Origin: a virus
Lineage: Duplodnaviria > Caudoviricetes
IMG/VR virus record: IMGVR_UViG_3300047539_000055
Length of the DNA stretch: 64,000 nt
Reading direction: 5' to 3' (one strand)
Both the position numbers and the translations under genes were made by a program. This document shows positions 14,191 to 46,812 of this stretch, piece after piece. The first letter of the stretch is position 1. The number at the start of each line of letters is the position of its first letter. Under the pieces are notes generated by a model that worked only from the letters and a program-made list of their open reading frames with translations, was not told the origin of the DNA and did no database searches.

Positions 14191-14212
14191 ATAATACCTC
14201 ATAAAATAATTT

Positions 14213-14704: not shown

Positions 14705-15556
14705 TCAATCGTCTGCATCTCGCTCTTGTTTCATATCGGCGGCGGTCCATAATGGCACTTTTCCTAGCAATGTCAAATGGTCAGATTTGAACCACGCAGT
14801 GCTTTCGCAATCATAACCATAGGTAAAATCTGAAAATCCATCGTATGAAGAACGACCAAAATTATAATGATGAACGCAATCAAAATGACGAGCGATATGT
14901 TGCCACGGAAAATCTTTCTGTAACAAATAACCAGAATCAAATCCTATCTCCCTTATCCTTTTCCATTCTTCGGGATCAGCATACGCCGTATTTTCCCTTC
15001 CAAGAGTAGCAAACATTTCATACATACATTTGGCATCATTTGTGGAATCAATTTCACATACTGTAGTGCCTGGCTTTACATCATAAAGATAGCCAAGTTG
15101 TCCTTGACCTTTCATTTTATCTGGTAATCCTCCCTCTTGAACAAAATCATTCCAAGAACTTGTCCATTTTCCATTTGATTTTTCTTTTGCTGTGCTTGTC
15201 CATAAGGCAGAATTAGTAGGTTTTTGTCCACCGACATTTGGAGTAGTGTTAACCAAAATTGGAGCGCCTTCAAACATAATACTTTCGTTGGCTAAATCAA
15301 TCATTCGTTGATATTCTGGTTTAAGATTTCCTTCATCGTCATACGCATATTGAGCGCGGTTTTGAAAAATATAATCAGAAAATTCTTTTTTAGTGTGATA
15401 ACTTTCTACTTTTCTTGGAACAAAAAGTTGCTTCGTTCCATTTGGCATTTTTGTCATCCCTTGCTCTTTATAATATTCAAGCATCTCTCGTTCGCGTTCC
15501 ACAGGATCATATGGAGCCACAACTTTCTTTCGTCTTGTCAATTCTGTAAGTCTCAT
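14705..15556 (-). CDS. Putative internal head protein of unknown function
   Basis: MRLTEL leader; internal IMFE|G linker before a 'KP...LWTS...W...YDCEST' domain. Confidence 0.6.
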   Translation of the reverse strand: MRLTELTRRKKVVAPYDPVEREREMLEYYKEQGMTKMPNGTKQLFVPRKVESYHTKKEFSDYIFQNRAQYAYDDEGNLKPEYQRMIDLANESIMFEGAPILVNTTPNVGGQKPTNSALWTSTAKEKSNGKWTSSWNDFVQEGGLPDKMKGQGQLGYLYDVKPGTTVCEIDSTNDAKCMYEMFATLGRENTAYADPEEWKRIREIGFDSGYLLQKDFPWQHIARHFDCVHHYNFGRSSYDGFSDFTYGYDCESTAWFKSDHLTLLGKVPLWTAADMKQERDADD

Positions 15557-16899
15557 AATTCTACGCTATTAACTCTATGTACTTTCTTGTGACAGGGTTC
15601 ACAAAGAGTAAGTCCATTATCAATATCAAATCTAAGTTCTGGATATTTAGCAAATTCTTTAATATGATGAGCATGGAGGAATCCAGTTGCTTTACAATCC
15701 ATACATTTATATTCATCCCGCTTAAAAACAGATTTTCTCCAATTTTGATATTCTTCACTTTTTCTTATAAGAGCATTGGCACTTGCTTTAAAGCCATCCC
15801 ATTCACTTTCTGTAATTCCTTGTAAAGTACAACTTATCTTTTTACGAGTTGCTTCTCGTTTTGTTTGTTCTCCTGGCAAATAACAACTTTCCAATCCTAA
15901 TTTAATTGCCTTCAGTCTAATGGCATCATGTGTTTTCCCCAATATTTCTGATATCTCTTTAAAAGTTTTGGTTTCTGATAATTCGATAAGATTTTCTATT
16001 TCACTATTTGTCCAAATACGATCTCTTCTTTTAATATTTCTATATCGCATTGATCTTATAATATTTGCGCCTGTGCAACCAAGTTCTTTTCCAATCTGTT
16101 CTGATCCTTTCTTTTTCCCCCAATATTCACAATATAACCATGATCTATTACTAATTGGTTTTTCATCTTCTTTTAAACTTTGACCAGCCATAAGAACTTG
16201 TTCTAAAATATTCTTTCCAACAGACTGACCAATTGATTCGTGTAAAATCATCGCATTATTTTGTATACAGTGACCGCCGATTCCACCAGGATAATCTTTC
16301 AACACCGGCCGTTGAACATTTTTCATACCAAGAGATGCATATCCAGAATTATAGCTTTTATTTGCTTGCGTGTAAACCAAATCAAAATCTAAACCAAGTT
16401 GATCACAATACGCTTTGACCGCTTTTTCAAAAACTATATTCCAACCATAATAAGTGGTATCCCACAACTTCATCGCTTCTGTGGTTTCTGATTTTGGAGT
16501 GGTTACACAATCAATACCAAGCTTTCTAAAAACAACAGCCGCTTCTTCTGCTCTTGCTCCACCAAAATATTTGGTGAAGGTATAAATTCCACTAACCAAA
16601 TGTGGATGAACTCCACGAATCGGAGAATGCACAGCATTGAAATAAGATGAAGTGCTAACATCCACAGTGGAATGGATAATTACCAATCCATCCTTGGTAA
16701 GATATTTATCAAGATATTTTTGAACTGCGTCTACAAATTCATCATTGAAAGGAATACAGATATGAATAATGCTGAATTTAGCTGATATTGGTAATACCCC
16801 AATATCCAGCCCTTCAACTTTTAGAAATTGTCCTTCGGATAGCACAGTTATTAATGCCTTACCAACTTGACCTTTACTACCAATTACGAGATGGCTCAT
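15553..16899 (-). CDS. Nucleotide-sugar (UDP-glucose/GDP-mannose type) dehydrogenase-like domain fused to HTH + HNH endonuclease
   Basis: GxxGxVG Rossmann fold, IHST, HSP, E..KL..T, GGIGGHC catalytic motif; C-terminal WRKSVFKRDEYKC..C....LHAHH.........R.DIDNGLTLC..CH. Confidence 0.85.
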   Translation of the reverse strand: MSHLVIGSKGQVGKALITVLSEGQFLKVEGLDIGVLPISAKFSIIHICIPFNDEFVDAVQKYLDKYLTKDGLVIIHSTVDVSTSSYFNAVHSPIRGVHPHLVSGIYTFTKYFGGARAEEAAVVFRKLGIDCVTTPKSETTEAMKLWDTTYYGWNIVFEKAVKAYCDQLGLDFDLVYTQANKSYNSGYASLGMKNVQRPVLKDYPGGIGGHCIQNNAMILHESIGQSVGKNILEQVLMAGQSLKEDEKPISNRSWLYCEYWGKKKGSEQIGKELGCTGANIIRSMRYRNIKRRDRIWTNSEIENLIELSETKTFKEISEILGKTHDAIRLKAIKLGLESCYLPGEQTKREATRKKISCTLQGITESEWDGFKASANALIRKSEEYQNWRKSVFKRDEYKCMDCKATGFLHAHHIKEFAKYPELRFDIDNGLTLCEPCHKKVHRVNSVEL

Positions 16900-16908
16900 A
16901 TAATATCC

Positions 16909-17703
16909 TTATACAAATTTGCTAAATGCTTCTTGTAATGCAGAAGTTAGTCCACCATCCTTTTCACATGGTAATGAACAAAATTGTTGATCTACACTAT
17001 GTACATTTTTGAAAGTATTCTGACAAGATGGACACACTTTTTTAGTGGCGTGACTTGCATTTTGAAATTCCTTATATGATAGCACCTTTCTTGTCTTTTC
17101 ATTTTTTGACTCACGCCAAAACGCCATAGCTGGACTATAGGAACGAACGGGTTCTGGTTCTGCCATTGTTGCCCAATTTTGTATTTCTTCTTTTACTTCA
17201 TCTTTTTTTCCCTCCCAACTTGGATATAATGGTGGAACTGAATATTCCACAGTAAACCAATCACCGGGGGTTCTAATTTCCAATGCGGCAAAAACTCTTT
17301 GTAAAGTTGCTTCATCCTTATTAGCAAATTCAATTACTGTATGAGCATATCCAACTGTTCCTGCAAAACGAACTCTAACAGTTCCACTTAAAAGACTAGG
17401 ATCATCATGCATTCGTGCAACTACATCACGCAACTCATAATGCATTCTACCAACATAAACATGATTTTTGGGAGTAATCAAAGCGGCAGGGTGATCTATG
17501 TTAACTTTTTTAAGTTTTGCAAATTGGTTACGTGTGGCTTCATCCAAAACTTCTCTATCGCCAATTTCTGGCGTAATGCCACAGCCAAAAAATTTCTTAC
17601 TCAGAGTTCCTTTCTTTGGATTCCCACCAAGCACAGGGCCGACAGATGCAACTTTATCAGTTGCTCTTAGTGTTCCAGGTTTAGATGACTTTTTCTTTTT
17701 CAT
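16909..17703 (-). CDS. Putative head-associated protein with C-terminal Zn finger
   Basis: Basic N-terminus, VLDE|A linker, CPSC...FCSLPC. Confidence 0.6.
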   Translation of the reverse strand: MKKKKSSKPGTLRATDKVASVGPVLGGNPKKGTLSKKFFGCGITPEIGDREVLDEATRNQFAKLKKVNIDHPAALITPKNHVYVGRMHYELRDVVARMHDDPSLLSGTVRVRFAGTVGYAHTVIEFANKDEATLQRVFAALEIRTPGDWFTVEYSVPPLYPSWEGKKDEVKEEIQNWATMAEPEPVRSYSPAMAFWRESKNEKTRKVLSYKEFQNASHATKKVCPSCQNTFKNVHSVDQQFCSLPCEKDGGLTSALQEAFSKFV

Positions 17704-19094
17704 TAGTTTGACACCACGCTTATTTTGAAATCTTTAACTGTAAGTCTTGGTCTGAGTGAAAGTGGTAATTCTATTTTATATCTCTCAAAACTTCCCACCG
17801 CATAAACTACATCATCTCTAGTTTCCACATCTGCAACAATATATCTACGCTCCAACGTATAATTTATTTTTCTAACCAAGACATATAATGCGGCTCCTCT
17901 TTCTTCACTTTTACGATTAAAATAATTATATCCGATTGTTTTTGCCGCTAAACGAATCCCTTCCTTTACTGCATCAAGAAGTTTCGTACCTGGTTTGAAA
18001 TCGTATCGTTGCTTATCAAAAGTTTCAATATGCCAATTTGGAAATTCTTTTTCAAATGCTTCTTTCACATCATAAGTAAAATGTTCTCGTACATCTGTTG
18101 GCATAACATACATTGATTTGGTCTTCGGATCAAGTTTCAAATACCCGCGATCATAACTATCAAAATGGGGTGCAAATCCACCTGTCATTCGTCTCTTATT
18201 TATAATGTCATGAAATCGAGTGGTATGCATTGCATAATGTCCTTTACGAATTGTCAATCCATATGTTGGATAATAAATCCATAGATATGTTCCAAACCTT
18301 GTTGTATCTTCTACACCCTCGACTACTCGCTTCGCTGGACTCCTCTTTGCAGTCCAAGGAACCACCACAAAGTTATTGCTTCTAATTCCTGGTCGCAAAT
18401 TTTCTGGCGGCGTAACCACATACTTTTCGTATGTTCCTTTTACCAAAAGAGAGTTACCAAGTCGTGTTATCTTTGCCACAATATATCTACCAGCCAATCT
18501 TTGCGCAATTTCCTTCTTCAATAGTTCCAAACGCTCAAGAGAATCACTTTTTTCGAAAGTACCACCTGGCGGATCAAATCTTATAGACATACGAGCCAAA
18601 TCAATGTATTCATCAATTCCATCTATAATTGCCTCTTTTACCGCCCCCATTGGTTTCCAATTATCTCCTTTATAGGAATCAAACTTGACAATCTCCCAAT
18701 TTGGAAATGTTTTTTTGAATATCTTCTCCATTGGATGTGCAAAAAATTCGTGAACATCTGTTGGATAGAAATACAATACATGATTATCTACATCGGTTTG
18801 AGCATATCCTCTATCAAAATCATCATAATCAGTATCAGACTGATTCATTATGTTACCAAAAACTCTGCCGTGGGCCGCGTAATTTCCTTCACCAATGAGC
18901 AATCCTACAGTTGGATCATAAATCCATACATACTTTCCAGTAAATCTTGGATTACTAATATCTGCATTACGCCATTTAGCAAGCGCTTCGTTCTTGGCAG
19001 GTTCATATAAACCTCGTGTATGGACAGGTTCATTAGTCTCTATCCATTCATCATCACCAGACGAGTTAGATTGCCAAAATTCTTGTAACAGCAT
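17703..19094 (-). CDS. Putative internal head protein made of a tandem duplicated ~200-aa unit
   Basis: MLLQEF leader; two copies of 'RF.....WIY.P..GL....G.YA.H...DRGY...PTDV.E.F...FPNW.I..FD...AVKE'. Confidence 0.7.
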   Translation of the reverse strand: MLLQEFWQSNSSGDDEWIETNEPVHTRGLYEPAKNEALAKWRNADISNPRFTGKYVWIYDPTVGLLIGEGNYAAHGRVFGNIMNQSDTDYDDFDRGYAQTDVDNHVLYFYPTDVHEFFAHPMEKIFKKTFPNWEIVKFDSYKGDNWKPMGAVKEAIIDGIDEYIDLARMSIRFDPPGGTFEKSDSLERLELLKKEIAQRLAGRYIVAKITRLGNSLLVKGTYEKYVVTPPENLRPGIRSNNFVVVPWTAKRSPAKRVVEGVEDTTRFGTYLWIYYPTYGLTIRKGHYAMHTTRFHDIINKRRMTGGFAPHFDSYDRGYLKLDPKTKSMYVMPTDVREHFTYDVKEAFEKEFPNWHIETFDKQRYDFKPGTKLLDAVKEGIRLAAKTIGYNYFNRKSEERGAALYVLVRKINYTLERRYIVADVETRDDVVYAVGSFERYKIELPLSLRPRLTVKDFKISVVSN

Positions 19095-19106
19095 TTCAAT
19101 TCCTCT

Positions 19107-19307
19107 TTATGTTCTTTTGATCAACGTAGGACTAACGGTTTTACGATCTTTTCTATTCTTTTTGATTGTGCTATATATTGAAGAGGCTGGATCACCGCCA
19201 AAAAATTGACCTTTTGGTGGGGTTCCGCCAGCAATCGTGGTTCCCATATTTCCGGCCGAAGTTGACCCTCCAGATGATGTTTCTTGAATGATTTCAGAAA
19301 TTCTCAT
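19107..19307 (-). CDS. Small head protein (E|TSSGGSTSAGN type)
   Basis: MRISEIIQE leader, SD AAGGTG, TAAATA at 19321-19326. Confidence 0.7.
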   Translation of the reverse strand: MRISEIIQETSSGGSTSAGNMGTTIAGGTPPKGQFFGGDPASSIYSTIKKNRKDRKTVSPTLIKRT

Positions 19308-19349
19308 AGTTCACCTTCAGTATTTACCAATCTTTTGAGATTTCCAAGA

Positions 19350-21110
19350 TTATTTTCCTTGTAAATCAATTCTGAAATAACTATCACCGTCAGAATCTTT
19401 CAATTTTTTCACTGAATATCTTTTAGCCAATTTTTCCCACGCCGATTTAGCATACAGTGATCTTGTAAAATCACTAACAATATAAGAATATCCAGCTTTT
19501 TTGGCTTCATGAATCATTCTATCGTATAGCATTTGACCAAGACCAGTATTATGCCAGTTACCTCTTTCTGTTAATTTACTTGTAGTTATTTGAATGCCAT
19601 TGAGTTCTATACACGAAATGTCTCCACAACTATCAGATTTCATTGGGCGAGCTATTATTACCCCTTCACTAAAACCAGAAATATTATTTTTATCAATTGC
19701 TCTAATTTCTATACCATTTTCGTCACTTTTTACTTTCCACGTCAACTTTGAAATCTCGGCATCACGATCATTGTAATGACGATAACCGAAATCTGGAGAC
19801 TCAGCCACTTTTATTCTGCTCAAGACAATATAAAAATATGAATGAGGAATGTATGTATGTGAATCTCTATATCGGACTGGATATCTCTTTCTCAACTTTT
19901 CCCATGCCTGATCAGCGTCATAACTTCGTGTAGTATCCGAACGAAATTCTCTACAACCTTTTGACTTTGCCAAATCAATAGCCTTGTCATATAACATTTG
20001 TCCAAGACCAGTTCCTTTCCATTCCTTTACAATTTCGCTTCTCAAAACATTCATACTTGATGATGAGAATATAAAACTAAGAACCATTTTTCCAATTTCA
20101 TTATTTTCATTTATTGCTTCTATTATAAATGATTGATGATCTACATTCTTGGGGCCACTTCTTATATTAAACTTTACTGATGACAATTCTTTATCACGAT
20201 CATTGAATCGTGAATACCCAAAATCTGGAGACTCCTTCAATGGAATTTTTGTCAGGTCAATTCGATAAACTGTTTTCAATGCGTTTGCTGGGCCTTTCTT
20301 ATTTGGAACTTTTTCAACTGAATATCGTTGTCTCAATCTATCCCATGCACTTTCGGCATCACTTGTTCTGAAAAATCCAGACTCAAAATAATGATAACCC
20401 ATTTTCTTTGAGAGTTGAATTGCTTTATCATACAATATTTGACCAACGCCAGTTCCTTGCCATTCGCGAGTTATTTGAATTCGTGTAACTTCTATAACAT
20501 CATTATTTCCAAATGAAAAACAACGAATTTTTGTCCATGGATCATTTTGAATGTTAATCTCAAATCCAGGAGCATTTGGTGGTTCTCTTTCCACAACGAA
20601 TTTGATTTTCTTTATGTCCTTATCTCTGTTGTTGAATTGAGAGTAGCCAAAATCTGGAGACTCTCTCATAAAAAATTTCTTGACATTCATTGGATTATAT
20701 CGTTTTCTCGCTTCCCACGGAGCCTTCAAAAACATTTTGGATGACTTATAGATAAAAATATCTCGCGGAGTAAAAATTACATTTGAAACTTTGAAAAATT
20801 GTTCACGCTTTTCACTCCATCGTTCATATTTTCCAAACGGAATATCAATATCGTAACATTCTTTACCCATCCACGCTCTAACCCAATAATGATCGTTATC
20901 CTTATCAATAATAGATGTTTTTACGCCGAAAATATCATATTTAATACAGTTTGCCATGACTTTCGCAACATCATTACATAATCCATAAGAACCTCCCCAA
21001 TTATCATATTCCCATTGAACTTTTTGAACCACATAAGGCTTCAAGGCCATCAGCGCAGCCTTCAATGGTCGTTCAATAACGGATTCAGAAATCAAATCAT
21101 CAACAAACAT
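19350..21110 (-). CDS. Polyprotein: Cys-His-Asp (papain/transglutaminase-like) domain + three GNAT acetyltransferases
   Basis: GLC...HYWV...YDID triad; three acetyl-CoA motif-A copies (WQGTGVGQILY, WKGTGLGQMLY, WHNTGLGQMLY), each preceded by xE|SPDFGY. Confidence 0.85.
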   Translation of the reverse strand: MFVDDLISESVIERPLKAALMALKPYVVQKVQWEYDNWGGSYGLCNDVAKVMANCIKYDIFGVKTSIIDKDNDHYWVRAWMGKECYDIDIPFGKYERWSEKREQFFKVSNVIFTPRDIFIYKSSKMFLKAPWEARKRYNPMNVKKFFMRESPDFGYSQFNNRDKDIKKIKFVVEREPPNAPGFEINIQNDPWTKIRCFSFGNNDVIEVTRIQITREWQGTGVGQILYDKAIQLSKKMGYHYFESGFFRTSDAESAWDRLRQRYSVEKVPNKKGPANALKTVYRIDLTKIPLKESPDFGYSRFNDRDKELSSVKFNIRSGPKNVDHQSFIIEAINENNEIGKMVLSFIFSSSSMNVLRSEIVKEWKGTGLGQMLYDKAIDLAKSKGCREFRSDTTRSYDADQAWEKLRKRYPVRYRDSHTYIPHSYFYIVLSRIKVAESPDFGYRHYNDRDAEISKLTWKVKSDENGIEIRAIDKNNISGFSEGVIIARPMKSDSCGDISCIELNGIQITTSKLTERGNWHNTGLGQMLYDRMIHEAKKAGYSYIVSDFTRSLYAKSAWEKLAKRYSVKKLKDSDGDSYFRIDLQGK

Positions 21111-21111
21111 T

Positions 21112-21993
21112 TTACCACATACCCCTTCTTAGTTTTAGTTGTTTTCCATCCCATTGAAATGCTTGATAGTATTCGGTTCCAGAACCAGTCTTCAATTCAA
21201 AATCTACTAAGTCTGATATTCTCTTCATCTCCCTAATAGTAAAACTTTCCAGTTTTGGAGACATTTTTTGTATAGTTTCAAAATAAGAAAACCCCTCATG
21301 AACAACTACACGAAGCAACCCTGCTTTATACGCATCCTCATAATCATGAAAGAAACCCATCATCTTAGCAGTTCCTAAATGTGTTCTTTCATATCCATTT
21401 GGAACAAATCTACCACTTGGAAATAACCAACCATGACCATTGATCGGCGCAGTTTTACTACCAACCCTTTTTATAAACTCGGAAGATCGCCATTTTTCAA
21501 TGGCCCATTTGTCAACTGCTTTCTTTGCGGGTGAATTGAAATCTTCATAAACGTTACGTTGTCGTCTTTGTGGAACTAACTGTCTTCCATCCCAATCAAA
21601 TCTTTTTTGAAAGCCAGTTCCAGAGCCACTCACAAATTCTAATCCATAACCTTTAGGAAACCTTTTTATGGCCTTCAAAACAATCTTTTCCAATTCTGGA
21701 GACATACGTTTGTCGGTTTCTAAATAAGCTTCGCCGTCGCCGCCTCTACCAAATCCCATAAATGCTACACGAAGTAATCCAGCAGTAAAGGCTTCATCAT
21801 ACCCACGACCATATCCCATTTTGTCGGCCATCGCTACATGACTTCTTCCTCCATTTGAAATAAATGTTCCATCTGGAAATAACCATCCTTGATCAGTAAT
21901 CGGCACAGTTTTACTTCCATACTTCTTCTTATACTCAAGAGGAGTAGGAGGTTTCTGCCGATAAACTTCGGGAATGAAATCTTCAATCAGCAT
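21112..21993 (-). CDS. Putative internal head protein with two GWLFPxG domains
   Basis: MLIEDF leader; two homologous units separated by NVYE|DFNSPAKKA. Confidence 0.75.
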   Translation of the reverse strand: MLIEDFIPEVYRQKPPTPLEYKKKYGSKTVPITDQGWLFPDGTFISNGGRSHVAMADKMGYGRGYDEAFTAGLLRVAFMGFGRGGDGEAYLETDKRMSPELEKIVLKAIKRFPKGYGLEFVSGSGTGFQKRFDWDGRQLVPQRRQRNVYEDFNSPAKKAVDKWAIEKWRSSEFIKRVGSKTAPINGHGWLFPSGRFVPNGYERTHLGTAKMMGFFHDYEDAYKAGLLRVVVHEGFSYFETIQKMSPKLESFTIREMKRISDLVDFELKTGSGTEYYQAFQWDGKQLKLRRGMW

Positions 21994-21994
21994 T

Positions 21995-24900
21995 TTACCA
22001 CGCCCTTCGGTTCTGTGAAACTAATTGTTTACCATCCCAATTAAATCTTTTATAAAATGGAGAACCTGAACCGCTAATAAGAGTTGCATCTTGGGAACTG
22101 CGCATTCTTTTGATTGCTTTTATGACAAGATTTTCCAATCTTGGTGACATTTGTTGTGACGTTTCAAATTGATGAATATATATTGACAAACGAATCAAAC
22201 CTGCTTCATACGCCGCATCATATCCATATTTGAATCCCATTTTAAGGGCTGTCGTTACATGACCTCTTGTTATTCCATTTGGAACAAAAGTTCCATTTGG
22301 CAATAACCAACCATCATCATCAATCGGGGATGTTTTACTACCATTTCTTTTTATAAAGGCTACGCCACTTGCTTTCGTAGCGGGTGTATCGTAGGATTCA
22401 AATATATGATTTGCGGCGAATCTTCCACCACGCGGCGGAATCAAAGAATCTTCAACCGGAACGTAAGCCATGATATCTTTGTCACCACGTAGATAGGCAG
22501 CATAGGCGCGATGATGCCCATCTACAATTGGGCTATCATCATCCCAATAATCGCGAGGCTGAAGAATAACCGGAGGAAGTGGTGTTAATCGACTCCCATA
22601 CTCTTTGGCTTGCTCTTCACTGAAACAACCCTCTTCAGCCCGAATCAAATCAAGAGGTACCTTCTTAAGCTCGTACCAATCAGCTTGGAGAAGATGATTA
22701 ACTTGCTCAGGTGTGACTGAGTGATGCCACAGAGACGCCAGATGCTTTGCTACGTCATCACGGCTAATTAGGGATGATGCCGTATGAACGAAAAAACTGT
22801 GTCTTGCTTTCGTAGCGGGTGAACCGTAGGATTCATACATATTACGTCGTTTTGCGTTCCGAACAAATTCTTTACCAGTCCATTCATATTCATCATTTCC
22901 AAAACTTTCACCACATAAAAGAAAAATATTTGGAAACGAAGACTGAATATCTGTGGCTATCTTTTCTGATCTTTTGCAAACCCGTTCATATGGTAAAATA
23001 GTTTGAATAACACATTCTCCTCTCCCTTGACAAGAAACATGAAGCCATCCTTTGCGCCAAGCAGATGTATAAGTTTTAATACCAGCCTTTTTCAAAGTAT
23101 TCCAATGTCCTTCCCCTGGCGCATTTGGAATAAACTTTCCTGTTGGCAATAACCAACCATCCTGACCAACTTGTTGTACGGAGATGCCTTCATTTATGGA
23201 CTCATCCCTTCGTCTATAAGTATCAAAATATCTACCATTCCATTCAAGTGTCTTCTTTTTGAAACCTGACTCTCCCCATATTGACAATATAATGCTTGGA
23301 TACTTTTGTGCCAAGCGTGTACGAACTACATTCATTAATTTTTTACTATTTTCTGTTCCAACTGTTGTAGTATCTAACTCAACAGTAGTTCTATTCAGGA
23401 TATATAAATGAATCCATCCCTCCTTATATGCTTCTTTATAAGAATCCATACCATGATCACGAAGTATCATAAGATGATTAGATAATCTAAAATTGAGTGG
23501 TATAAACTTTCCACTGGGTAGTATCCAACCATCATCGTTGATTTGATTATCAACGGCTTCCGTCACTGGTTCTTTTGGAATATATAATTTTCCTGTTTTT
23601 ATATTTCCTACTAGAGAATATTTGAATCTATCGCCAGTATATATTGTAATAAAGTTGTTTCCATAAATCCCATTAATACGATTAGCAATTTGTAGCCACT
23701 TTGGGCCGTGACCGTCTATATCTACTTCTTCTGTACCTGATCCATCATCGTCATCATCATTTTTAGACCAATTCGGTTCAGACTCCTCATCTTCTATATC
23801 TGGTTTCTCATTGTCAAGCCAACGCGGGAATATATTATTTAAAAAATCTTCAACATGGCACAATTCATGAGCCAAAACAGATTTATAAATAAACGCATCT
23901 CTTGCCGCATCTGGATTGATTCCTACATACAAGGTATGATTAATTGCCCAATAAGTAACACCCAAACAATACTTTTTCATTTTTACTGAATGTATCCCTA
24001 TTGGTGGAACTTTACTAATTTTGAAATGTGATAACAATTCATGAAGAATGTCATCTCTTTCTGCTTGAGAAAGAATAGCCTTACGAAACATTCCAGCGTT
24101 GGCTCTATATCCATCTTCCGTTATTGAGTGTCCTTCAAAAATTTGGTTCAAATTTTCTTTAACTTCTACAAGTTCAGAAAAATTATATATATCATTTGCC
24201 TCTTGAATCGGAACCCCAAGTCTTTTAGCAGCCTTCTTCATAAGAATCATAACATCCTTATCGCTAATAGAAGAATTCATCGCTGATCGCCATATTTGAA
24301 TTTTTTGCTGGACGGTTGCTTGTGGATCACGAAGAATATCTCTCATTGGTGTAGCTCGTGGTCCTGCCTCGGTACTACTTGGGTCACCAGTTTCTTGGCG
24401 GCTAATGACATCAATCTTGTCAAATGAAAAGGGAATTTCCCCTTTGTTATTTGATACTCCGTTATATTTTTTTACGTAACTCAATGCGTTAACTTGATCT
24501 TCACCAACTACTACCGTTAATTGGGTATATCCCATTTCTTGTAATTTACGAAGAACGCGAGTTAAATCTGGCATTTCGTCTGTTGCTGCAAAAAATATTT
24601 TCTTTTGGGACGGAAAAACCTTACGATAGATGGCAAGTTTTTCTCTGGGAGTAATTGGATCATCCTTCCCCATGGTACGACTTACTACGAAGTACGGATC
24701 GCCTCCCATTTTCTTCGCTTGAGTAAGAACACTGCTGGCAAGAAACATATGTCCTTTATGTCCCATACCTCTTCCCCATCCAAGCACAGCAATTTTGCTA
24801 TTACCAGTTCGTTGCAAATCCTCTTGAAGACGATCAGCCTTCATTTTTGGATTCCAATTTTTTTGATCAATAGCTTTAATGAATTGACCGGGAAGATCAT

Positions 24901-26689
24901 ACTTAAATTTTTTATCAGAATGAGCTTGAACATATCCCTCTGGATTTGTTTGACGAATACCGCCATGAGTTCCTTGTGCCAAAACACTAAGCAACTTATA
25001 TTTTTCTGCCGTAAGCATTTCCATAGCAGCAAAAATTGCTTTCAATCCTGGATGATCCAACATTTTTTTAGTTTTTTCAGCACTAAGATTTTTAGCAGCC
25101 CAAGCTATAAATTGTTTAGTAACTTGTTCTACACGAAAATTTTGATTGAAAAATTTGTATAATATATCGCCGGGACGAGACAACCCCGGCTGACCAGCAA
25201 CAAAAGAATCAATGATTTTAGCGTTCTTACTGATAAAAGCTGCAACTTTATCCAATCCCTTTATATCAATTTTAGGAATTGATTCTACATATGTTGTTCC
25301 CACGACGAGAACATCATCTGATGATAATTTTGAAACATTTGGATATCTTTCTTCATCTGCTCCAATATATTTGTAATAGCCAGTAGCGGCGATCATTACT
25401 TTTGCTTTTGAAATCCGTTGACCAAGTTCAGAGTCAGCAGGAACATGAAATTCTGTAACATTTGGCTTAAAATCCCACTCATTCGTTTTAGGATTTAATG
25501 TTGCAGGATCACCGGGCCAAAATAACAATCCACCTTCAATAAATCCTTTCTTTGGACTTATCTTTTCAAAATAGCTCCATAATTTAGATAAATTTTGAGC
25601 GTATTTTTGACGAAGTAATTCTTGACCTTGTTCAACATTTCCAGTAGTAGCAATAAATTTTTCTACATCTTTTGAACTACCCAGCAAAGTTTGAACTCCA
25701 CCCTTAGTAGTTTGAACTCCTCTTTTGAGATATTCCACCGCATTCTTAGGTAACATATGAAACTTGCCAGTATCATCACGGCCCCAATATAAAACTGGGC
25801 TTCCATCCATTTTTAATTCTATACCCTTTCCTTCACTACTCATCTCCTTCAATCGTTCAACAGCATGAAGTCCACCAATGCTACCATTGGTAAAAACTAA
25901 ATCTTCAATATGTTGATATTTGCGACCCACCTGGGGGGCAGCCGCCTCTGTAATCGGACGAACAGCATCCCATCGTTCATAACTGTAAGCCAAATCAACC
26001 ATCGCTCGTTTTTGTGCTGGATCGGGTATAGCAGCAATAATACTTTCAACACTACCAAGATCAGATGCTTTAGCGTTTGAACCGATTAAATAGTGAGCAA
26101 TTTCGTTTAAGTCGTCGGTAATGAAACTTGATTTCTTTCCATCGGAATCTCGCATAAAAAGACCTTCATCAGAACTCCAAACGAAACCTTGGCTTGTTGC
26201 CAATGCATTAATAAGTAATTGCTTATGTAAACCTTTAAACGGACTATTTTTAGGAAGGATATGTGTATGAAACAATCTGATGCGTTCTGCATTTTTTACA
26301 GGCTTAATATCAACTTGATAAAATTTACCTTTAAATGGAAGCAAAATATGAACTGTAATTCCAGTTTTTCTGGTCTTTAATCCCTTTTGTTGAAGATATT
26401 GCTCAAATTTTTGACGAATTATTTTTGAATCAGAAATTTTGAAAGTATTTTCCAAGTGAGTTAGATCAACTAAAACATCTAAATCTCCGCTCATTTTTCC
26501 GCTGGTGGGTGTGGCTGCACTACCAATTACGTAAGCTTGTAAACCAATATCATGAAGATACCTATCAGTTTCAGCTACCAATTGAGAAGCAATGACTTGA
26601 TCAAAATGACTACTTTCTGGCCAAATATTACCGCCTTCAAATAGTGTTGTACTTCTCCAAGCATGATTATACAAGTCATTTAATAGCAT
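21995..26689 (-). CDS. 1564-aa polyvalent polyprotein: PolB-like NTase, ligase-like (KxDG), HxGH nucleotidyltransferase, SprT-like peptidase, GWxxPxG x2, ParB/Srx-like, GWxxPxG
   Basis: GS...SGDLDV..QVD; ELKMDGSP...EGYV; GRGMGHKGH...VVGED...ATPMR; AHELCH...GHGPKW; IVDGHHR; TAAATA at 26698-26703. Confidence 0.85.
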   Translation of the reverse strand: MLLNDLYNHAWRSTTLFEGGNIWPESSHFDQVIASQLVAETDRYLHDIGLQAYVIGSAATPTSGKMSGDLDVLVDLTHLENTFKISDSKIIRQKFEQYLQQKGLKTRKTGITVHILLPFKGKFYQVDIKPVKNAERIRLFHTHILPKNSPFKGLHKQLLINALATSQGFVWSSDEGLFMRDSDGKKSSFITDDLNEIAHYLIGSNAKASDLGSVESIIAAIPDPAQKRAMVDLAYSYERWDAVRPITEAAAPQVGRKYQHIEDLVFTNGSIGGLHAVERLKEMSSEGKGIELKMDGSPVLYWGRDDTGKFHMLPKNAVEYLKRGVQTTKGGVQTLLGSSKDVEKFIATTGNVEQGQELLRQKYAQNLSKLWSYFEKISPKKGFIEGGLLFWPGDPATLNPKTNEWDFKPNVTEFHVPADSELGQRISKAKVMIAATGYYKYIGADEERYPNVSKLSSDDVLVVGTTYVESIPKIDIKGLDKVAAFISKNAKIIDSFVAGQPGLSRPGDILYKFFNQNFRVEQVTKQFIAWAAKNLSAEKTKKMLDHPGLKAIFAAMEMLTAEKYKLLSVLAQGTHGGIRQTNPEGYVQAHSDKKFKYDLPGQFIKAIDQKNWNPKMKADRLQEDLQRTGNSKIAVLGWGRGMGHKGHMFLASSVLTQAKKMGGDPYFVVSRTMGKDDPITPREKLAIYRKVFPSQKKIFFAATDEMPDLTRVLRKLQEMGYTQLTVVVGEDQVNALSYVKKYNGVSNNKGEIPFSFDKIDVISRQETGDPSSTEAGPRATPMRDILRDPQATVQQKIQIWRSAMNSSISDKDVMILMKKAAKRLGVPIQEANDIYNFSELVEVKENLNQIFEGHSITEDGYRANAGMFRKAILSQAERDDILHELLSHFKISKVPPIGIHSVKMKKYCLGVTYWAINHTLYVGINPDAARDAFIYKSVLAHELCHVEDFLNNIFPRWLDNEKPDIEDEESEPNWSKNDDDDDGSGTEEVDIDGHGPKWLQIANRINGIYGNNFITIYTGDRFKYSLVGNIKTGKLYIPKEPVTEAVDNQINDDGWILPSGKFIPLNFRLSNHLMILRDHGMDSYKEAYKEGWIHLYILNRTTVELDTTTVGTENSKKLMNVVRTRLAQKYPSIILSIWGESGFKKKTLEWNGRYFDTYRRRDESINEGISVQQVGQDGWLLPTGKFIPNAPGEGHWNTLKKAGIKTYTSAWRKGWLHVSCQGRGECVIQTILPYERVCKRSEKIATDIQSSFPNIFLLCGESFGNDEYEWTGKEFVRNAKRRNMYESYGSPATKARHSFFVHTASSLISRDDVAKHLASLWHHSVTPEQVNHLLQADWYELKKVPLDLIRAEEGCFSEEQAKEYGSRLTPLPPVILQPRDYWDDDSPIVDGHHRAYAAYLRGDKDIMAYVPVEDSLIPPRGGRFAANHIFESYDTPATKASGVAFIKRNGSKTSPIDDDGWLLPNGTFVPNGITRGHVTTALKMGFKYGYDAAYEAGLIRLSIYIHQFETSQQMSPRLENLVIKAIKRMRSSQDATLISGSGSPFYKRFNWDGKQLVSQNRRAW

Positions 26690-26709
26690 AGTATGAGTAT
26701 TTATTCAAA

Positions 26710-27285
26710 CTACTCTATATGTTGTTCCCTTTGATCTAACGACACATCGGAAGCCTTGACAGCTTCAATTTTTTTGATTATTGCAGGGTTAAAAATCACA
26801 ACGATGGTTTCAGCCCTTCCAGCAAAACCACGAGATATTTCATAATCGGCACCGTGATTTACAATAAACTTTCTCAATTCAACCGTATTTTTTGGTGACA
26901 AACATTGATAATTTACACAAAGGTTAACCAACACTTCAAGAAATAGCTTTCCAAGTCTGTTGATATTGTTCGTCAAATCTTCAATCATTGGCTTGCGATA
27001 CTGACCAATTACATATCGTTTAACAAAATCAATTGCTTCTTGTAACTCAATAGTGACTTTAGAAATATCTGTTCCCTTTTCAATTGTGAGTTTAAAAGTT
27101 GTTCCGCCGCCTTTGGCGTACTTTCTGGCAGTTTCATAATGAGTAGTGAGATATAAACCTGGGCCGTATTCCCATCGGCCTTTCTTAGCGGGAATCATAT
27201 TCATCTGATTGAATTGAAGATTTCTTCCACCATGCCAAAGGGTCATGGTTTGCGACACATCTTCAATTACTTCGTTTATCTTCAT
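26710..27285 (-). CDS. ADP-ribosyltransferase-like protein (H-Y-E type, polyvalent-protein ART)
   Basis: LWHGG, GPGLYLT, A.KYA and ETIVVIFNP motifs; MKINEVIE leader. Confidence 0.75.
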   Translation of the reverse strand: MKINEVIEDVSQTMTLWHGGRNLQFNQMNMIPAKKGRWEYGPGLYLTTHYETARKYAKGGGTTFKLTIEKGTDISKVTIELQEAIDFVKRYVIGQYRKPMIEDLTNNINRLGKLFLEVLVNLCVNYQCLSPKNTVELRKFIVNHGADYEISRGFAGRAETIVVIFNPAIIKKIEAVKASDVSLDQREQHIE

Positions 27286-27815
27286 GTGATTCCATATATC
27301 TTGTTAAGTTTGGAAATAACCTCTGGAAACCAAGCATTTTTGTAGAGTATTCCAATTCCGCCAGCCGCGTTCCATTTATTAATATTGTCAGGATGATCAT
27401 CAATCAAAATATTTGGTCTGCCTTTTGTAGTGGCGTATTTTTCTTTATCAAATTCATAAATTACTGGAATAACAGATACTCCATGCCGATGTAACCAAAT
27501 ATTTTTTCCAGCAATACAATCTTTTGTACCCGGTTCTCGTACAGGTCGGCTCAAAAAAGTAACTGGAATATACTGAGATAATATCCATCCCAACATACTC
27601 TTGCCATTACTTTCCCATTCCGCATTAGCAAAAAAGTCCTTAAGATTAGCTGTATTTAACACATTTGTCCAATACTTATTGTTGAATCCCAACAAATCAT
27701 ATTCTGCCAAGGATACATTATTGTATTCAGCGATAGCTTTATCAAGCCATACAACAACACCATCTAAATCCAAATATATTTTAGCGGGGTGATGTTCGAT
27801 TTCTTCTATTCTCAT
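27282..27815 (-). CDS. HAD-family 5'(3')-deoxyribonucleotidase (NT5C-like)
   Basis: YLDLDGV, K..W, ILIDD..DNI..W..AGGIGI motifs. Start at 27815 (MRIEEIE) is 5 nt after TAAATA. Confidence 0.88.
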   Translation of the reverse strand: MRIEEIEHHPAKIYLDLDGVVVWLDKAIAEYNNVSLAEYDLLGFNNKYWTNVLNTANLKDFFANAEWESNGKSMLGWILSQYIPVTFLSRPVREPGTKDCIAGKNIWLHRHGVSVIPVIYEFDKEKYATTKGRPNILIDDHPDNINKWNAAGGIGILYKNAWFPEVISKLNKIYGIT

Positions 27816-27904
27816 ATTCATATTTATTCCTTTGTGTTATAATAGAATTATATACTAATTACGCAGAATCTTCTGAAAAAAGATAAATAAAGAGGAGACA
27901 ACTT

Positions 27905-28846
27905 ATGAGCCAACAATCAACAACTCAAATTTTTATTAATAAAGCCAAAATTAAACATCACCATTTTTACGATTATACCTTGGTGGAATACAGCAACAAT
28001 TTCACCAAAGTCAGAATTATTTGCCCTATACATGGAGAATTTCAACAGCGACCAAACCAGCATTTAAATGGTAATGGTTGTTACGAATGTGGCAGAATCA
28101 AAACAATTCAAAAGCAAACCGGTTTGCTATCAGACTTTATCAATAGAGCAAATATCATTCATAGCAAATTTTATAGTTATGAAAATGCTAAGTATCAAAC
28201 CGCAAGGATCAAATTACTTGTTACCTGTCCAATACATGGAGATTTTTCAATTACACCAGATAATCATTTACGTGACAAAGGATGTCATAAATGTGCCAAA
28301 ATGATTATAAATCGCCATCGAACCGCCAAATCTAAGAATTTTAAAGAGAAAGCAAGATTGTATCATAATAATTTTTACACTTATGAAAATTCTATCTTTA
28401 ATGGAGTACGAGAAAAATTACTGGTTACTTGTCCAATACACAGAGATTTTTCTGTTACTCCAGATAATCATTTGCGTGGTAGAGGCTGTCCCTCGTGTAA
28501 CAACAGCCGAGGAGAAACTAAAATTGAAAACATACTTATAAAATTAGGTGTGCCATTTTCAAAGCAAATCAGATTCAATGATTGTAAATTTAAAAGAGCA
28601 CTTCCATTTGATTTTGGTGTGTACAACAATAATCAAAAACTCAATGGGTTAATCGAATTTCAAGGAAAACAACATTTCAAACCAGTTTTCATTTGGAATG
28701 GAAATGATGGTCTTAAAACTATTCAAGAGCGAGACAAAATTAAAATGGAATACTGTATGTCGCACAGAATTCCCTTGTTAGAGTTAAATTACAATGAATC
28801 AAAAACGATGGAAAAGAAAATTTTATCCTTTATTTTTCTTCTTTGA
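27905..28846 (+). CDS. Putative homing endonuclease: three DUF723-like repeats + PD-(D/E)XK nuclease (paralogue of 8943-9689)
   Basis: CPIHG repeats; LPFDF...LIEFQGKQH; TAAATA 27884-27889 and SD GAGGAG. Confidence 0.82.
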   Translation: MSQQSTTQIFINKAKIKHHHFYDYTLVEYSNNFTKVRIICPIHGEFQQRPNQHLNGNGCYECGRIKTIQKQTGLLSDFINRANIIHSKFYSYENAKYQTARIKLLVTCPIHGDFSITPDNHLRDKGCHKCAKMIINRHRTAKSKNFKEKARLYHNNFYTYENSIFNGVREKLLVTCPIHRDFSVTPDNHLRGRGCPSCNNSRGETKIENILIKLGVPFSKQIRFNDCKFKRALPFDFGVYNNNQKLNGLIEFQGKQHFKPVFIWNGNDGLKTIQERDKIKMEYCMSHRIPLLELNYNESKTMEKKILSFIFLL

Positions 28847-31110: not shown

Positions 31111-33408
31111 TTAAATTTCCTTTTTAATTTTGATTGATTCCTTGACTGCAACCTTAATCTTTTTTGCTTCAATCACCAATACATCAGTGACCCAATCAAG
31201 ATGAATTGTGCTGTTATTCTTAATCTTTCCCTTCAACAATTGAATGCTGAGAGGATAGTTGATAATATCATCCACAGTTCCAGCTATCTTTCTTGCGCCA
31301 TACTCACTGTTCTTATTTAGTTTCAGAATATGAGTAATGAGCGCTTCACTCGCCACGATACGAAGATTACGAGAAGTAAGCATCTTACCAATTTCAGTAA
31401 TTCTTTCAGCCACAATCCTGCGATAGCTGAGTTCGTCCAAATCAACAAACTCAACAATACTAGTCATACGGCCACGCATTTCAGTCAGGAAGAAATCATT
31501 GACTGCCTTAGCAGATGCAGATTTTCCTGTTTTATTTGTGTCAAAACCCAACTGAGCCTTTGCGCCCTCACGAGTTCCAAGATTGCTTGTCATGATGATA
31601 ATGCAATTCTTGGCACTGGCAACCTTACCAGTAGTGCCAGTAATTTCACCATCATCAAGCAAACTCAAAAATACATTGAATGTATCAGGATGTGCCTTTT
31701 CAACTTCATCAAAAAGAATAACACTGTTTGGATGCTTCAACAAATCATTGACAAGCTGACCTTCACCAGTTTTACCGTCACCAAAACCAACATATCCAGG
31801 AGGCGCACCAATCAATCTAGCAACGGCATGTTTCTCCTGAAATTCACTCATATCATACTTGGTAAAATGCATATTCAAGTTTTCTGCTAACTGACGAGCC
31901 AAATATGTCTTACCAACACCACTCGGCCCAACAAATAGAAAACTACCAATTGGTTTCTTTGGATTCTTGAGTCCTGCTTGACTAATAATCAAGCATTGTG
32001 ACACACGATCAACTGCCTTATTTTGATGGAAAACGCTGTTATTGAGTCTATCACCCAGAGTTAGAATAAACTTGGCAGCATCCCCGCTTGTGGCTTCACT
32101 CTTTACAGTAATTCCAGTCATATCAGTAATTTCACGAATGATGCTTGCTCTATCAACCTTGTTCCCTTCAGTTTCAAGAACCTTCTTACGAGCGCAAGCA
32201 CTGTCCAAAATATCAACTGCCTTATCTGGCAACTTTTTGTCTGGTTGATACTTGACGGTCAATTCAATGGCGGCATCAAGAGCCGTATCATTGATTTTTA
32301 CCTTATGAAATTCTTCAATTGTAGAACGAGTTCCCTTCAAAATTTCAAGAGTTTCTGCAAGAGATGGTTCATCAACTGCCGTTACACGAAAACGGCGCAT
32401 AAGAGCAGTATTTTTTTCAAAAGTTTGGCGGAATCCTTCCCAAGTTGTTGACGCAATTACCTTGATTGTTCCACGACTCAATTCGGGCATGAGCATTGAA
32501 GCCAAGCCAAGGCCCATTTGTCCTTTGCCATCGCCCGTATCAATCTGGTGGGCTTCGTCAATAAACAAAATGGCATTTGGTTTGGTGGCAAGTTCTTTCA
32601 AAATATCTGTGACCTTCTCTTCAAAGTCACCACGGAATTTGCTTCCAGAAATTAGCGTGCCAACATCAAGGCTGAAAATTTCTTTGCCCTTGAGTGAGGA
32701 TGGAACCTTACCATCATTGATACGCTGTGCCAAGCCTTCAACAATCATAGACTTGCCAACACCAGGATCACCAATAAGCAACACATTGCATTTCTTGCGC
32801 TTGCTAAGAGTATGGGCAATTGTAAAAATTTCCTTATCCCTACCAATTAGCGGATCGGCAACCTTATCTTTTGCTTTTTCGTTTAGATTCTGGCAATACT
32901 GCGTAAGTGCGCTTTCAGAGGAACCTCCCATATTATGTACGATATCCACGGTAGCAGTTATATCCTTTCTGAGTTGAATAATCATTTCCTCGGTTATGCC
33001 GTACTTACTGAGAAAGTAAGAGGCGTGAGTTTCACGAGCATTGAGCAAAGTAAGCAACATATCGGAAATATCAACTTCCCGTTTTTCTGCTTTTGCCAAA
33101 TCTTGGATAGTGCGGATTATGCTTGCAACTTCGGATGTTAGTTGACCTTCCATAACATTAGGGTCAGGGTTTTTCATTTGATTCTTTAGCAGATGGGAAT
33201 TTTCCTGAATATGCTCAAGTATTTCAACGCTCAACATATTCATTTCAATACCTTTGGCAGTGAAATATCGTCTAATCAAATTGCTTTGAATTAACGCACA
33301 TAGCATATGCTCGGTAGTAATTGTAGTTTGCTCCATACTCATTGCTATAGCAAAGCTCATTTCAACTACATTTGAAATTAATGCTGCTCCTAAATTTATC
33401 TTAGCCAT
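31111..33408 (-). CDS. clpA: ClpA-like Hsp100 AAA+ chaperone
   Basis: Clp N domain, two Walker A motifs (GDPGVGKS, GPSGVGKT), GAPPGYVG pore loop, LGF ClpP-docking loop; TTGACA-17-TATTAT at 33425-33453. Confidence 0.93.
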   Translation of the reverse strand: MAKINLGAALISNVVEMSFAIAMSMEQTTITTEHMLCALIQSNLIRRYFTAKGIEMNMLSVEILEHIQENSHLLKNQMKNPDPNVMEGQLTSEVASIIRTIQDLAKAEKREVDISDMLLTLLNARETHASYFLSKYGITEEMIIQLRKDITATVDIVHNMGGSSESALTQYCQNLNEKAKDKVADPLIGRDKEIFTIAHTLSKRKKCNVLLIGDPGVGKSMIVEGLAQRINDGKVPSSLKGKEIFSLDVGTLISGSKFRGDFEEKVTDILKELATKPNAILFIDEAHQIDTGDGKGQMGLGLASMLMPELSRGTIKVIASTTWEGFRQTFEKNTALMRRFRVTAVDEPSLAETLEILKGTRSTIEEFHKVKINDTALDAAIELTVKYQPDKKLPDKAVDILDSACARKKVLETEGNKVDRASIIREITDMTGITVKSEATSGDAAKFILTLGDRLNNSVFHQNKAVDRVSQCLIISQAGLKNPKKPIGSFLFVGPSGVGKTYLARQLAENLNMHFTKYDMSEFQEKHAVARLIGAPPGYVGFGDGKTGEGQLVNDLLKHPNSVILFDEVEKAHPDTFNVFLSLLDDGEITGTTGKVASAKNCIIIMTSNLGTREGAKAQLGFDTNKTGKSASAKAVNDFFLTEMRGRMTSIVEFVDLDELSYRRIVAERITEIGKMLTSRNLRIVASEALITHILKLNKNSEYGARKIAGTVDDIINYPLSIQLLKGKIKNNSTIHLDWVTDVLVIEAKKIKVAVKESIKIKKEI

Positions 33409-33449
33409 TTTTACCCTCAAGATAATAATACCATATAGTTACACAAATG

Positions 33450-46804: not shown

Positions 46805-46812
46805 ACTAATAT

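Follow-up and report, generated by a model that had tools for sequence, protein, structure and literature searches.

What might a phage gain from a single open reading frame (ORF) that encodes eight modules in a row, and what becomes of so long a product? The question is raised by a 64,000-nucleotide stretch of DNA (hereafter the window) from a virus of the Caudoviricetes (Duplodnaviria; IMG/VR record IMGVR_UViG_3300047539_000055), in which positions 21995-26689 of the minus strand form one open frame from ATG to stop, 1564 codons long, specifying a chain of 175 kDa. We consider it fairly probable that this chain is a cargo polyprotein, made late, targeted to the capsid and cut by the prohead protease into eight modules that are ejected. 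This view rests on where the modules were found to end, on how well their junction motif is conserved, on the coincidence of leader ends with junctions and on the protease that relatives encode. The window also encodes a T4-type family B DNA polymerase (PolB; phrog_262, E 1.7e-171), a gp6-like baseplate wedge protein (phrog_10646, E 8e-243), giant virion proteins, a ClpB-like ATPase and several homing endonucleases, and the nearest cultured polymerases, at ~40% identity, are those of jumbo T4-superfamily phages, for example Atu_ph07 and RaK2-like phages. A megablast comparison with the INPHARED phages yielded no close relatives, and none emerged when IMG/VR was scanned by peptide pattern with the entire 1564-residue protein; the eight-module form was encountered elsewhere just once, in an identical fragment (P0022).

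An earlier note on this DNA, made from the letters alone, had divided the frame into eight modules bounded by nine glutamate codons, and all its coordinates and sequence contexts were reproduced. The glutamates are residues 18, 248, 623, 830, 858, 1044, 1167, 1286 and 1431, in the contexts LFE, PITE, RLQE, PIQE, SITE, PVTE, SINE, NMYE and HIFE, respectively, and the predicted products of cleavage are eight polypeptides of 13.6-42 kDa (Table 1). The eight modules are real units: both their independence and their glutamate-ending junctions of the prohead-protease type are well supported by the comparative and fold evidence that follows.

The ORF begins with MLLNDLYNHAWRSTTLFE/GG (a slash marks a proposed cut), that is, with a leader in the range of about 10-20 residues that ends in L/I-x-E. 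This leader is of the same type as those of the T4 gp21 substrates, taken directly from NC_000866: MKTYQEFIAE in the internal proteins IPII and IPIII, MELITELFDE in Alt, MAKINELLRE in gp24, MLKEQLIAE in gp22 and, in internal protein IPI, MKTFKEFTSTTTPVSTITE, which ends in ITE/A. Homologues of the ORF product retain E18 and a hydrophobic residue two positions earlier. The T4 gp21 protease cleaves after L/I-X-E (PMC9026906; cf. PMC5694885, PMC3012670), the first ten residues of IPIII are enough for capsid targeting, the core proteins gp22, gp67 and gp68 have several cut sites each, and in Alt both ends are processed (PMC9026906). By analogy, residues 1-18 may be read as a T4-type capsid targeting sequence. 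Similar leaders recur around the ORF and in its relatives. The separate module genes share the consensus M-K/R-x-x-E/D-F/L..h-x-E (h, hydrophobic), relatives have MRAHEFLIE, MRINELLE, MRLKELFKE and MKLRDLFE, and the genes of the run 14705-27821 of the window start with MLLNDLY..LFE, MLIEDFIPE, MFVDDLISE, MLLQEF..WIE, MRISEIIQE, MKINEVIE, M(NM)RIEEIE and MRLTEL. The 28-residue spacer of the ORF holds ENLNQIFE..SITE/, resembling the leader MLLNQLFE of two relatives (P0018/P0019), and could accordingly be a relic of an internal leader; fused relatives have relic leaders at the same position (REMRAKEFVAE/ in P0002-P0009, REMKANEFIKE/G in the 345-kb genome G001). The relic leaders of P0002-P0009 and of locus L018 (11110-12372, plus strand; REMKANEFIKE/G) are complete with their methionine, and such leaders mark the points at which two leader-bearing genes became fused.

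The boundaries proposed for the ORF are those at which its homologues begin and end. A search of a large protein collection returned three classes of relatives, and a second search 607 shorter ones. One class consists of proteins of ~1000 amino acids spanning residues 1-827; another starts with module 2 (MKISHLLE/SAAIGRKYQH, where the query has PITE/AAAPQVGRKYQH); the third starts with module 3 (MKITDIFEE/ITRTGKG, against RLQE/DLQRTGNS in the query) and goes on into HD, NT5C and amidoligase modules. The leaders of separate module 1, 2 and 3 genes end exactly at the position of the fused junction. At one locus (L001) modules 1, 2 and 3 are encoded one after another by individual genes, all of which have leaders (MRYKEFTQILCE/GGNV, MRAHEFLIE/ADTGSIGRKYQH and MKIIDIFEE/INRTGKG), and in P0002-P0009 they are fused. 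The commonest shorter relatives, of ~617 amino acids, comprise modules 1 and 2 and end in WAPRKD, 3-4 residues before the fused LQE/ site; G001 has a 617-residue gene of this kind, also ending in WAPRKD, and a module 3 gene comes directly after it. Twelve homologues begin at module 2 behind a leader MK..LL.E/A, P0013-P0020 begin with module 3 behind a leader, and the ESM Atlas clusters include stand-alone module 1 proteins (243-270 amino acids, TM-score 0.78-0.82) as well as fusions of DUF6267, the family of module 2, to a cytidylyltransferase-like domain or a Cu/Zn superoxide dismutase. For the C-terminal half, an exhaustive HMMER search returned 89 relatives, in which GW (modules 5, 6 and 8), ParB, GNAT and HxGH modules occur in many orders.

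A hydrophobic-x-Glu (h-x-E) site is present at 118 of 118 internal module 1/2 junctions, 4-8 residues before the invariant GRKYQH, compared with a background of 15% of random 14-residue windows in the same proteins. The position two before the cut holds I (47), L (29), V (24), F (17) or M (1), the position before the cut holds nine kinds of residue, and the position after it is alanine in 103. In leader-bearing proteins h-x-E follows WDGK by 8-14 residues at each of the 20 internal GW ends, and C-terminal GW copies terminate at +9 to +11 after WDGK; in the leaderless proteins P0146, P0149, P0172, P0181 and P0184 the GW-end site is absent or, in P0146, without a fixed offset. This pattern of a fixed glutamate, conserved chemistry two positions before, freedom between and variable linkers points to selection on a peptide site.

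The motif was not accepted as sufficient by itself to map the cut sites, as 29 of the 89 glutamates of the protein stand in an h-x-E context. Boundaries were also obtained independently of the motif, from structure prediction. Residues 1-870 were modelled with AlphaFold2 (97-row alignment, mean predicted local distance difference test score (pLDDT) 83, predicted template modelling score (pTM) 0.47). The model contains three well-folded domains, and its pLDDT falls below 50 solely at 4-7, 14-19, 238-255, 614-622, 830-842 and the fragment end, in stretches that contain or touch E18, E248, E623 and E830. Ten other h-x-E sites of residues 1-830 (25, 40, 196, 282, 375, 385, 413, 469, 718 and 730) fall within the modelled domains, outside all segments with pLDDT below 50, and so, with respect to such segments, do those at 1086, 1090 and 1140. 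A model of residues 1045-1286 (pLDDT 88.7) consists of two compact α/β domains and is weak solely at 1162-1172, around E1167, and at its end. Past the leader, each internal segment with pLDDT below 50 in the two models contains or abuts a proposed site, and the pTM values of 0.47 and 0.55 describe domains without a fixed mutual arrangement. Folds that span the proposed cuts, which the earlier note had named as the finding that would speak against it, were seen at none of the five modelled junctions; those at 858, 1044, 1286 and 1431 are predicted solely from homology and repeats.

A protease of the required family is encoded by the relatives. All four related IMG/VR records, which are carriers of the module 1+2 gene (the 345-kb one being 94% complete), have a Peptidase_S77 (gp21-family) protein above the curated cut-off, with E ~1e-27; no prohead protease gene was found within the 64-kb window. 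G001 has its protease, scaffold-like protein and major capsid protein genes side by side, and the capsid protein has LME/S near the position of the LTE/A site of T4 gp23, upstream of a shared (V/I)RRxxP.

Immediately before the ORF stands a heptamer, ATAAATA, that resembles the T4 late promoter. On the minus strand 8 of its 16 copies lie within 25 nucleotides (nt) upstream of gene starts, where 0.29 would be expected, and the genes so preceded include those for the baseplate wedge (start 62540) and a 1917-residue virion protein (start 46804). Window-wide the heptamer is not over-represented (24 copies against 24.9 expected), the enrichment being solely in its placement at gene starts. By analogy with T4, this is suggestive, at most, of a late promoter that the ORF shares with virion genes. 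The copies at 26698-26704, 46810-46816 and 62546-62552 and five more precede eight minus-strand start codons by 5-21 nt. Three of the genes concerned lack a Shine-Dalgarno sequence, and in them heptamer and ATG are only 5-8 nt apart; genes with such short spacing would yield nearly leaderless late mRNAs.

As to what the chain carries, module 1 had been called a PolB-like nucleotidyltransferase, and at the fold level it is of the Pol-beta type, closest to family X DNA polymerases. It aligns with Pol beta (3k75_D; VIA-align Z 12.2, rmsd 4.2, 188 residues) and with Pol X of African swine fever virus (ASFV; 5hr9_A, Z 10.9, rmsd 3.2, 160 of 176 residues), and Foldseek matches it to Pol lambda (E 8e-7). 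It has the motifs GS...DLD, IGSAATPTSGKMSGDLDVLVD and QVDIK and consists of palm and thumb with hG[GS] and DxD carboxylates; in its 230 residues the 8-kDa lyase and fingers domains are absent, the alignments spanning palm and thumb only. Module 3 was likewise upheld as an HxGH nucleotidyltransferase: it matches phrog_3041 ('cytidyltransferase', E 5e-22), has a Rossmann-like fold with the motifs GHKGH (HxGH) and VISRQET (ISxxxxR-type), and its best-covering structural matches are nicotinamide or nicotinic acid mononucleotide (NMN/NaMN) adenylyltransferases (Z 9.2-9.5; VIA-align 2qjo_A Z 9.5 over 163 residues, 4rpi_A Z 9.4, 1f9a_A Z 9.2). Single-sequence searches of the PDB with modules 1 and 3 gave no match.

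Module 2 belongs to Pfam family DUF6267 (E 1.5e-15). The earlier label of a KxDG ligase-like domain holds as far as the motif goes: E291-L-K293-x-D295-G296 is invariant in alignments A1 and A5 and includes the K-x-D-G, with invariant lysine, of ligase motif I. The ligase label itself was dropped because a PDB profile search found no ligase at E up to 10, a Pfam scan of members found DUF6267 alone in 29 of 29, and hhalign comparisons with T4 Rnl1, Rnl2 and DNA ligase gave probabilities <1%. An ESM Atlas fold search returned the module's own family only, and a language-model match to an RNA_ligase cluster (0.78) is a mere lead. The module is confidently modelled, but the structure-search lists for the 870-residue model are filled by modules 1 and 3. 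The Pol X-like module and DUF6267, fused or adjacent, form a near-universal pair among the relatives found, and this pairing suggests that the two may act together, possibly on DNA ends or gaps. The likeness of module 1 to family X would favour DNA gap filling at least as much as RNA 3'-end addition, and the RNA-end repair or NAD+/nucleotide-signal countermeasure proposed in the earlier note is one possibility among several.

The second half of the chain is assigned mainly by motif and profile. Module 4, formerly an SprT HEXXH peptidase, is weakly recognizable as an HExxH zincin; the match to Pfam SprT-like (E 0.0016, 18.7 bits) lies below the cut-off of 25.6. In 8 homologues AHEL.H and a downstream GH..W are invariant, and AHELCHVED and a third histidine are invariant or nearly so; PDB profile matches cover the HExxH helix only (E 0.06). 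Some metallopeptidases (MPTases) of polyvalent proteins have an aspartate three residues after the motif (PMC5512222), and the sequence of module 4 would fit this phage type. For module 7, motif and profile weakly favour the ParB assignment given earlier: a profile of 31 sequences matched ParB and Noc chains (E 0.014-0.03), D, G and R of the D-G-H-H-R motif are invariant in these homologues (D-G-x-x-R), and homologue P0021 carries PF02195. Direct repeats of 40 nt, 90% identical (22368-22407 and 22803-22842), bracket the 435-nt ParB module exactly and encode E/SY(D/G)(T/S)PATKA; they look like the footprint of cassette insertion or junction-mediated recombination. The GW domain is present in five copies, three in the ORF and two in the next gene. 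Copy 1 is a compact α/β domain with block pLDDT of 81-97 (AlphaFold2), an alignment of 40 copies (A3) has invariant G, W and H, and the N-terminal extension of module 8 matches the N-terminus directly after the leader of ORF 21112-21993. In other lineages, GW domains are also part of multi-domain proteins that have no leader (P0146, P0149). There was no Pfam family for the domain at E up to 1 and no Foldseek match in the PDB at E 0.001 or better; the best VIA-align score, Z 5.3, was to gelsolin/ADF-like chains and is at noise level, the best BFVD match (E 0.02) was to uncharacterised phage proteins, and Atlas features gave no usable match. These null results do not amount to proof of a new fold.

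Table 1. Coordinates of the ORF, its parts and neighbouring features in the window.
Feature	Position	Strand	Basis or remark
ATAAATA	26698..26704	-	T4 late-promoter-like; 8 nt upstream of the start of the 1564-residue ORF
Leader, residues 1-18 (MLLNDLY...TLFE)	26636..26689	-	T4-type leader comparison, pLDDT, homologues
Module 1, residues 19-248, 25.7 kDa, family X polymerase-like nucleotidyltransferase	25946..26635	-	Fold
Module 2, residues 249-623, 41.9 kDa, DUF6267 with invariant K293-x-D-G	24821..25945	-	Pfam
Module 3, residues 624-830, 23.1 kDa, HxGH nucleotidyltransferase	24200..24820	-	PHROGs and fold
Acidic spacer, residues 831-858, six h-x-E sites	24116..24199	-	Putative relic internal leader
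Module 4, residues 859-1044, 21.2 kDa, putative zincin HExxH metallopeptidase	23558..24115	-	Motif/profile
Module 5, residues 1045-1167, GW domain copy 1	23189..23557	-	AlphaFold2, alignment
Module 6, residues 1168-1286, GW domain copy 2	22832..23188	-	AlphaFold2, alignment
Module 7, residues 1287-1431, ParB/Srx-like domain (DGHHR)	22397..22831	-	Profile, homologues
Module 8, residues 1432-1564, GW domain copy 3, long form with N-terminal extension	21998..22396	-	Alignment
Two-GW candidate cargo gene, 293 residues, leader MLIEDFIPE	21112..21993	-	Long-form GW domains, NVYE/DFNSPAKKA link (E150)
Triple-GNAT candidate cargo gene, 586 residues, leader MFVDDLISE	19350..21110	-	N-terminal 140-residue module and GNATs
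Two leader-bearing single-module genes, upstream of the ORF	26710..27821	-	NT5C-type nucleotidase, ART-like DUF3990

If the chain is handled in the manner of T4 cargo, the gene would be transcribed late together with virion genes, and the 18-residue leader would carry the entire chain into the prohead core. A gp21-type prohead serine protease would then cut after glutamate at exposed h-x-E sites, so that the leader would be removed, the linkers severed and the 28-residue spacer cut to small peptides. Eight folded products (Pol X-like, DUF6267, NMN-adenylyltransferase-type, zincin, ParB-like and three GW) would be freed in equal numbers; when the next cell is infected, they would exit the head along with the DNA and act ahead of phage gene expression. 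A single leader would in this way deliver eight cargoes, for which relatives use separate genes, each with a leader of its own. The earlier proposal of injected cargo stands on good comparative and fold evidence, with packaging, cleavage and ejection themselves being likely by analogy.

Several points weigh against this account. Packaging, cleavage and ejection are all argued from analogy, and the phage's own prohead protease is presumed from four relatives only. The h-x-E motif is short, with twenty further copies in the protein beyond the proposed sites; the 118 of 118 junctions are not 118 independent events, because the homologues are kin to one another; and some relatives show a less regular junction on the C-terminal side of module 3 (AKKE/S, for example). 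To our knowledge, a 175-kDa precursor exceeds any T4 cargo, Alt having 682 residues. The chain's own putative zincin peptidase could also do the cutting. We hold our estimate at 'fairly probable' because each step after translation is inferred.

The involvement of module 4 is central to one alternative, in which the product is a polyvalent protein that is packaged or delivered as one chain, any processing, inside the head or after injection, being due to its own zincin MPTase and not to the prohead protease. Such self-processing has been proposed for polyvalent proteins (PMC5512222), whose hallmark domains are found in the chain (putative zincin HExxH, ParB-like, Pol-beta nucleotidyltransferase) and next door (GNAT and ART genes), and the leaderless P0146 and P0149 are multi-domain proteins with GW domains. 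However, h-x-E junctions are also found in chains that have no peptidase (the 617-residue module 1+2 protein, the two-GW and the triple-GNAT proteins), h-x-E also ends the leaders of single-module proteins, the leaderless lineages are without the junction motif, and the motif fits the specificity of the T4-type prohead protease that relatives encode. The occurrence of the motif in peptidase-less chains and at single-module leader ends weakens this alternative, which we regard as unlikely; an MPTase acting in trans is a possible variant of it.

The chain might, in another view, be a cytoplasmic multi-enzyme fusion, neither packaged nor cut, its shared N-terminus and junction residues reflecting recombination cassettes or translation-start constraints that shuffle modules. 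The 40-nt repeats around the ParB module and the 35 nt that gene starts share at 80% identity (repeat families D6 and D12) would fit junction-mediated recombination, and hyperplastic regions are typical of T4-like genomes. The conservation at the junctions is, however, chemical and not at the DNA level (I/L/V/F/M two before the cut, nine kinds of residue next to it, invariant glutamate), the separate-gene versions end 3-4 residues before the fused site (for GW, 9-11 after WDGK), and the leaders match experimentally defined T4 targeting sequences, all of which makes a fusion that stays in the cytoplasm a distinctly unlikely explanation. That h-x-E stands at the boundaries by chance, in a glutamate-rich protein with 29 such motifs in 1564 residues, is scarcely credible: five boundaries found from model confidence alone contain or abut the motif, against the 15% expected per 14-residue window, and the motif is retained in all homologues examined.

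The cargo polyprotein proposed here has elements that are already known, namely T4 capsid targeting, the specificity of gp21 and polyvalent proteins. With the T4 internal proteins and Alt it shares a short N-terminal leader of like sequence type ending in L/I-x-E, a hyperplastic gene cluster, enzyme cargo such as ART and, in relatives, a gp21-family protease and a capsid protein with a cleavage-type site. T4 cargo, in contrast, consists of single products with one or two trimmed ends, whereas the present chains string together as many as eight folded modules that are unrelated to one another; T4 trims propeptides, whereas here a site stands at every junction and its cutting would release several mature proteins. 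Polyvalent proteins (Iyer, Burroughs, Anand, de Souza and Aravind 2017; PMC5512222) likewise have many effector-type domains per polypeptide (2-15, in phages or plasmids; the present chain has eight modules by fold, profile and homology), predicted DNA-coupled delivery and extensive shuffling, and their repertoire includes zincin MPTase, ParB, Pol-beta nucleotidyltransferase, GNAT, ART and RelA/SpoT-HD. The Pol-beta nucleotidyltransferase is listed there as restricted to conjugative-element polyvalent proteins, and processing is proposed to be by a built-in MPTase or, rarely, a C-terminal assemblin-like peptidase; T4-type leaders and regular prohead-protease sites at junctions are not described in that study (PMC5512222). 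Another comparison is with the inner-body and ejection proteins of the phiKZ-like giant phages phiKZ, 201phi2-1 and SPN3US, in which a gp21-related protease also cuts many head proteins after glutamate; the phiKZ-like motif is S/A-x-E, some precursors are cut more than once, and the phages eject protein in large mass (PMC5694885, PMC9026906). These phages differ in having a small instead of a hydrophobic residue two positions before the cut and belong to another lineage, and their cuts mostly remove long propeptides, chains of distinct enzymes not being described (PMC5694885, PMC9026906). Module 1 resembles the minimal ASFV Pol X in its palm and thumb, its GS...DxD motif, its size near 230 residues and its lack of the 8-kDa and fingers domains; it differs from ASFV Pol X and family X in sequence, with an identity of 14-21%. 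Within the literature consulted there was no account of unrelated enzymes strung regularly in one chain with prohead-protease sites at all junctions, nor of an interchange of such a chain with separate leader-bearing genes.

A broader reading, which as a whole we put forward only tentatively and with more doubt than belief, would join the following elements. A T4-superfamily clade that is widespread in metagenomes and includes 345-kb jumbo genomes would use head-cargo polyproteins, in which one capsid-targeting leader takes unrelated enzymes into the prohead, and its head maturation protease would also serve to process polyproteins, as happens in RNA viruses. At the core of the cargo would be a conserved kit, made in advance and injected, for nucleotides and for the repair of DNA ends or gaps: the minimal Pol X-like enzyme and DUF6267, the latter as a new K-x-D-G enzyme, often accompanied by an NMN-adenylyltransferase-type enzyme, an HD hydrolase or an NT5C nucleotidase. 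The targets of this kit, ahead of phage transcription, would be the incoming genome or nucleotide signals of the host. The GW domain would represent a new family of modules that are injected to bind or inhibit. If this is true, T4-type targeting and prohead proteolysis form a general delivery system, with one tag for many enzymes at a fixed ratio, that does more than trim a few small internal proteins. A leader together with exposed h-x-E linkers would then predict injected proteins of uncultured T4-like phages, and hundreds of public metagenome protein clusters fit this rule. Two uncharacterised families would be tied to the first minutes of infection. One is DUF6267, which almost always accompanies a minimal family X polymerase; the other, the GW domain, is without a Pfam family or solved relative. 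T4-based protein packaging could also take multi-protein cargo on a single leader.

The ORF lies within a run of leader-bearing genes, with the ClpB-like and PolB genes on either side, and relatives are syntenic. The 586-residue triple-GNAT protein is a second polyprotein of the same kind, in which each GNAT starts with E/SPDFGY (E150, E293 and E437; repeat families D5 and D8). Relatives attach GW domains to the GNAT start E/SPDFNY. At the two-GW gene, the stop codon and the next start form TGGTAAAATG, and this arrangement recurs at the end of the 1564-residue ORF. The two single-module genes encode an NT5C-type nucleotidase (leader MNMRIEEIE; phrog_2643, E 1.4e-20) and an ART-like DUF3990 protein (leader MKINEVIE) whose match, at E 0.0013, is below the cut-off. 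Further along the run, 17703-19094 (minus strand) encodes a 463-residue protein that begins MLLQEF..WIE/, contains two internal repeats and VKE/A, VVE/G and VKE/G sites, and has no family match; 19107-19307 (minus) is a 66-residue ORF with a leader of the type MRISEIIQE/.

The gene for the ClpB-like double AAA+ ATPase (phrog_4871, E 9e-201) and an adjoining one whose product contains HPD and is DnaJ-like, together at 31111-34055 (minus), flank the cargo cluster. In relatives (loci L001 and L003) the gene upstream of ClpB is called PF00226 DnaJ. The order of ClpB-like, cargo and PolB genes is preserved in relatives, and the cargo set in between varies. At the edge of the cluster, on the opposite strand, is a free-standing HNH homing endonuclease (27905-28846, plus; phrog_559, E 1.6e-70).

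Outside the cluster, leaders head two more minus-strand genes: 62929-63363, adjoining baseplate genes, encodes a 144-residue protein that starts MRLHELFE/S and has no family match, and 4998-5486 one of 162 residues that starts MKLFSEFLVE/E and matches phrog_755 ('RNA ligase' in PHROGs). The product name of phrog_755 is the same as that of gene 57B, the neighbour of ipI, in the T4 record. A UDP-glucose/GDP-mannose dehydrogenase-like ORF at 15553-16899 (minus) has a C-terminal HNH endonuclease domain, and the ORFs at 13630-14202 (minus) and 35483-35965 (plus) are paralogues built of repeated zinc-ribbon-like units, C-x-E-C-G-G-x-x-I-C-E-H-x-R.

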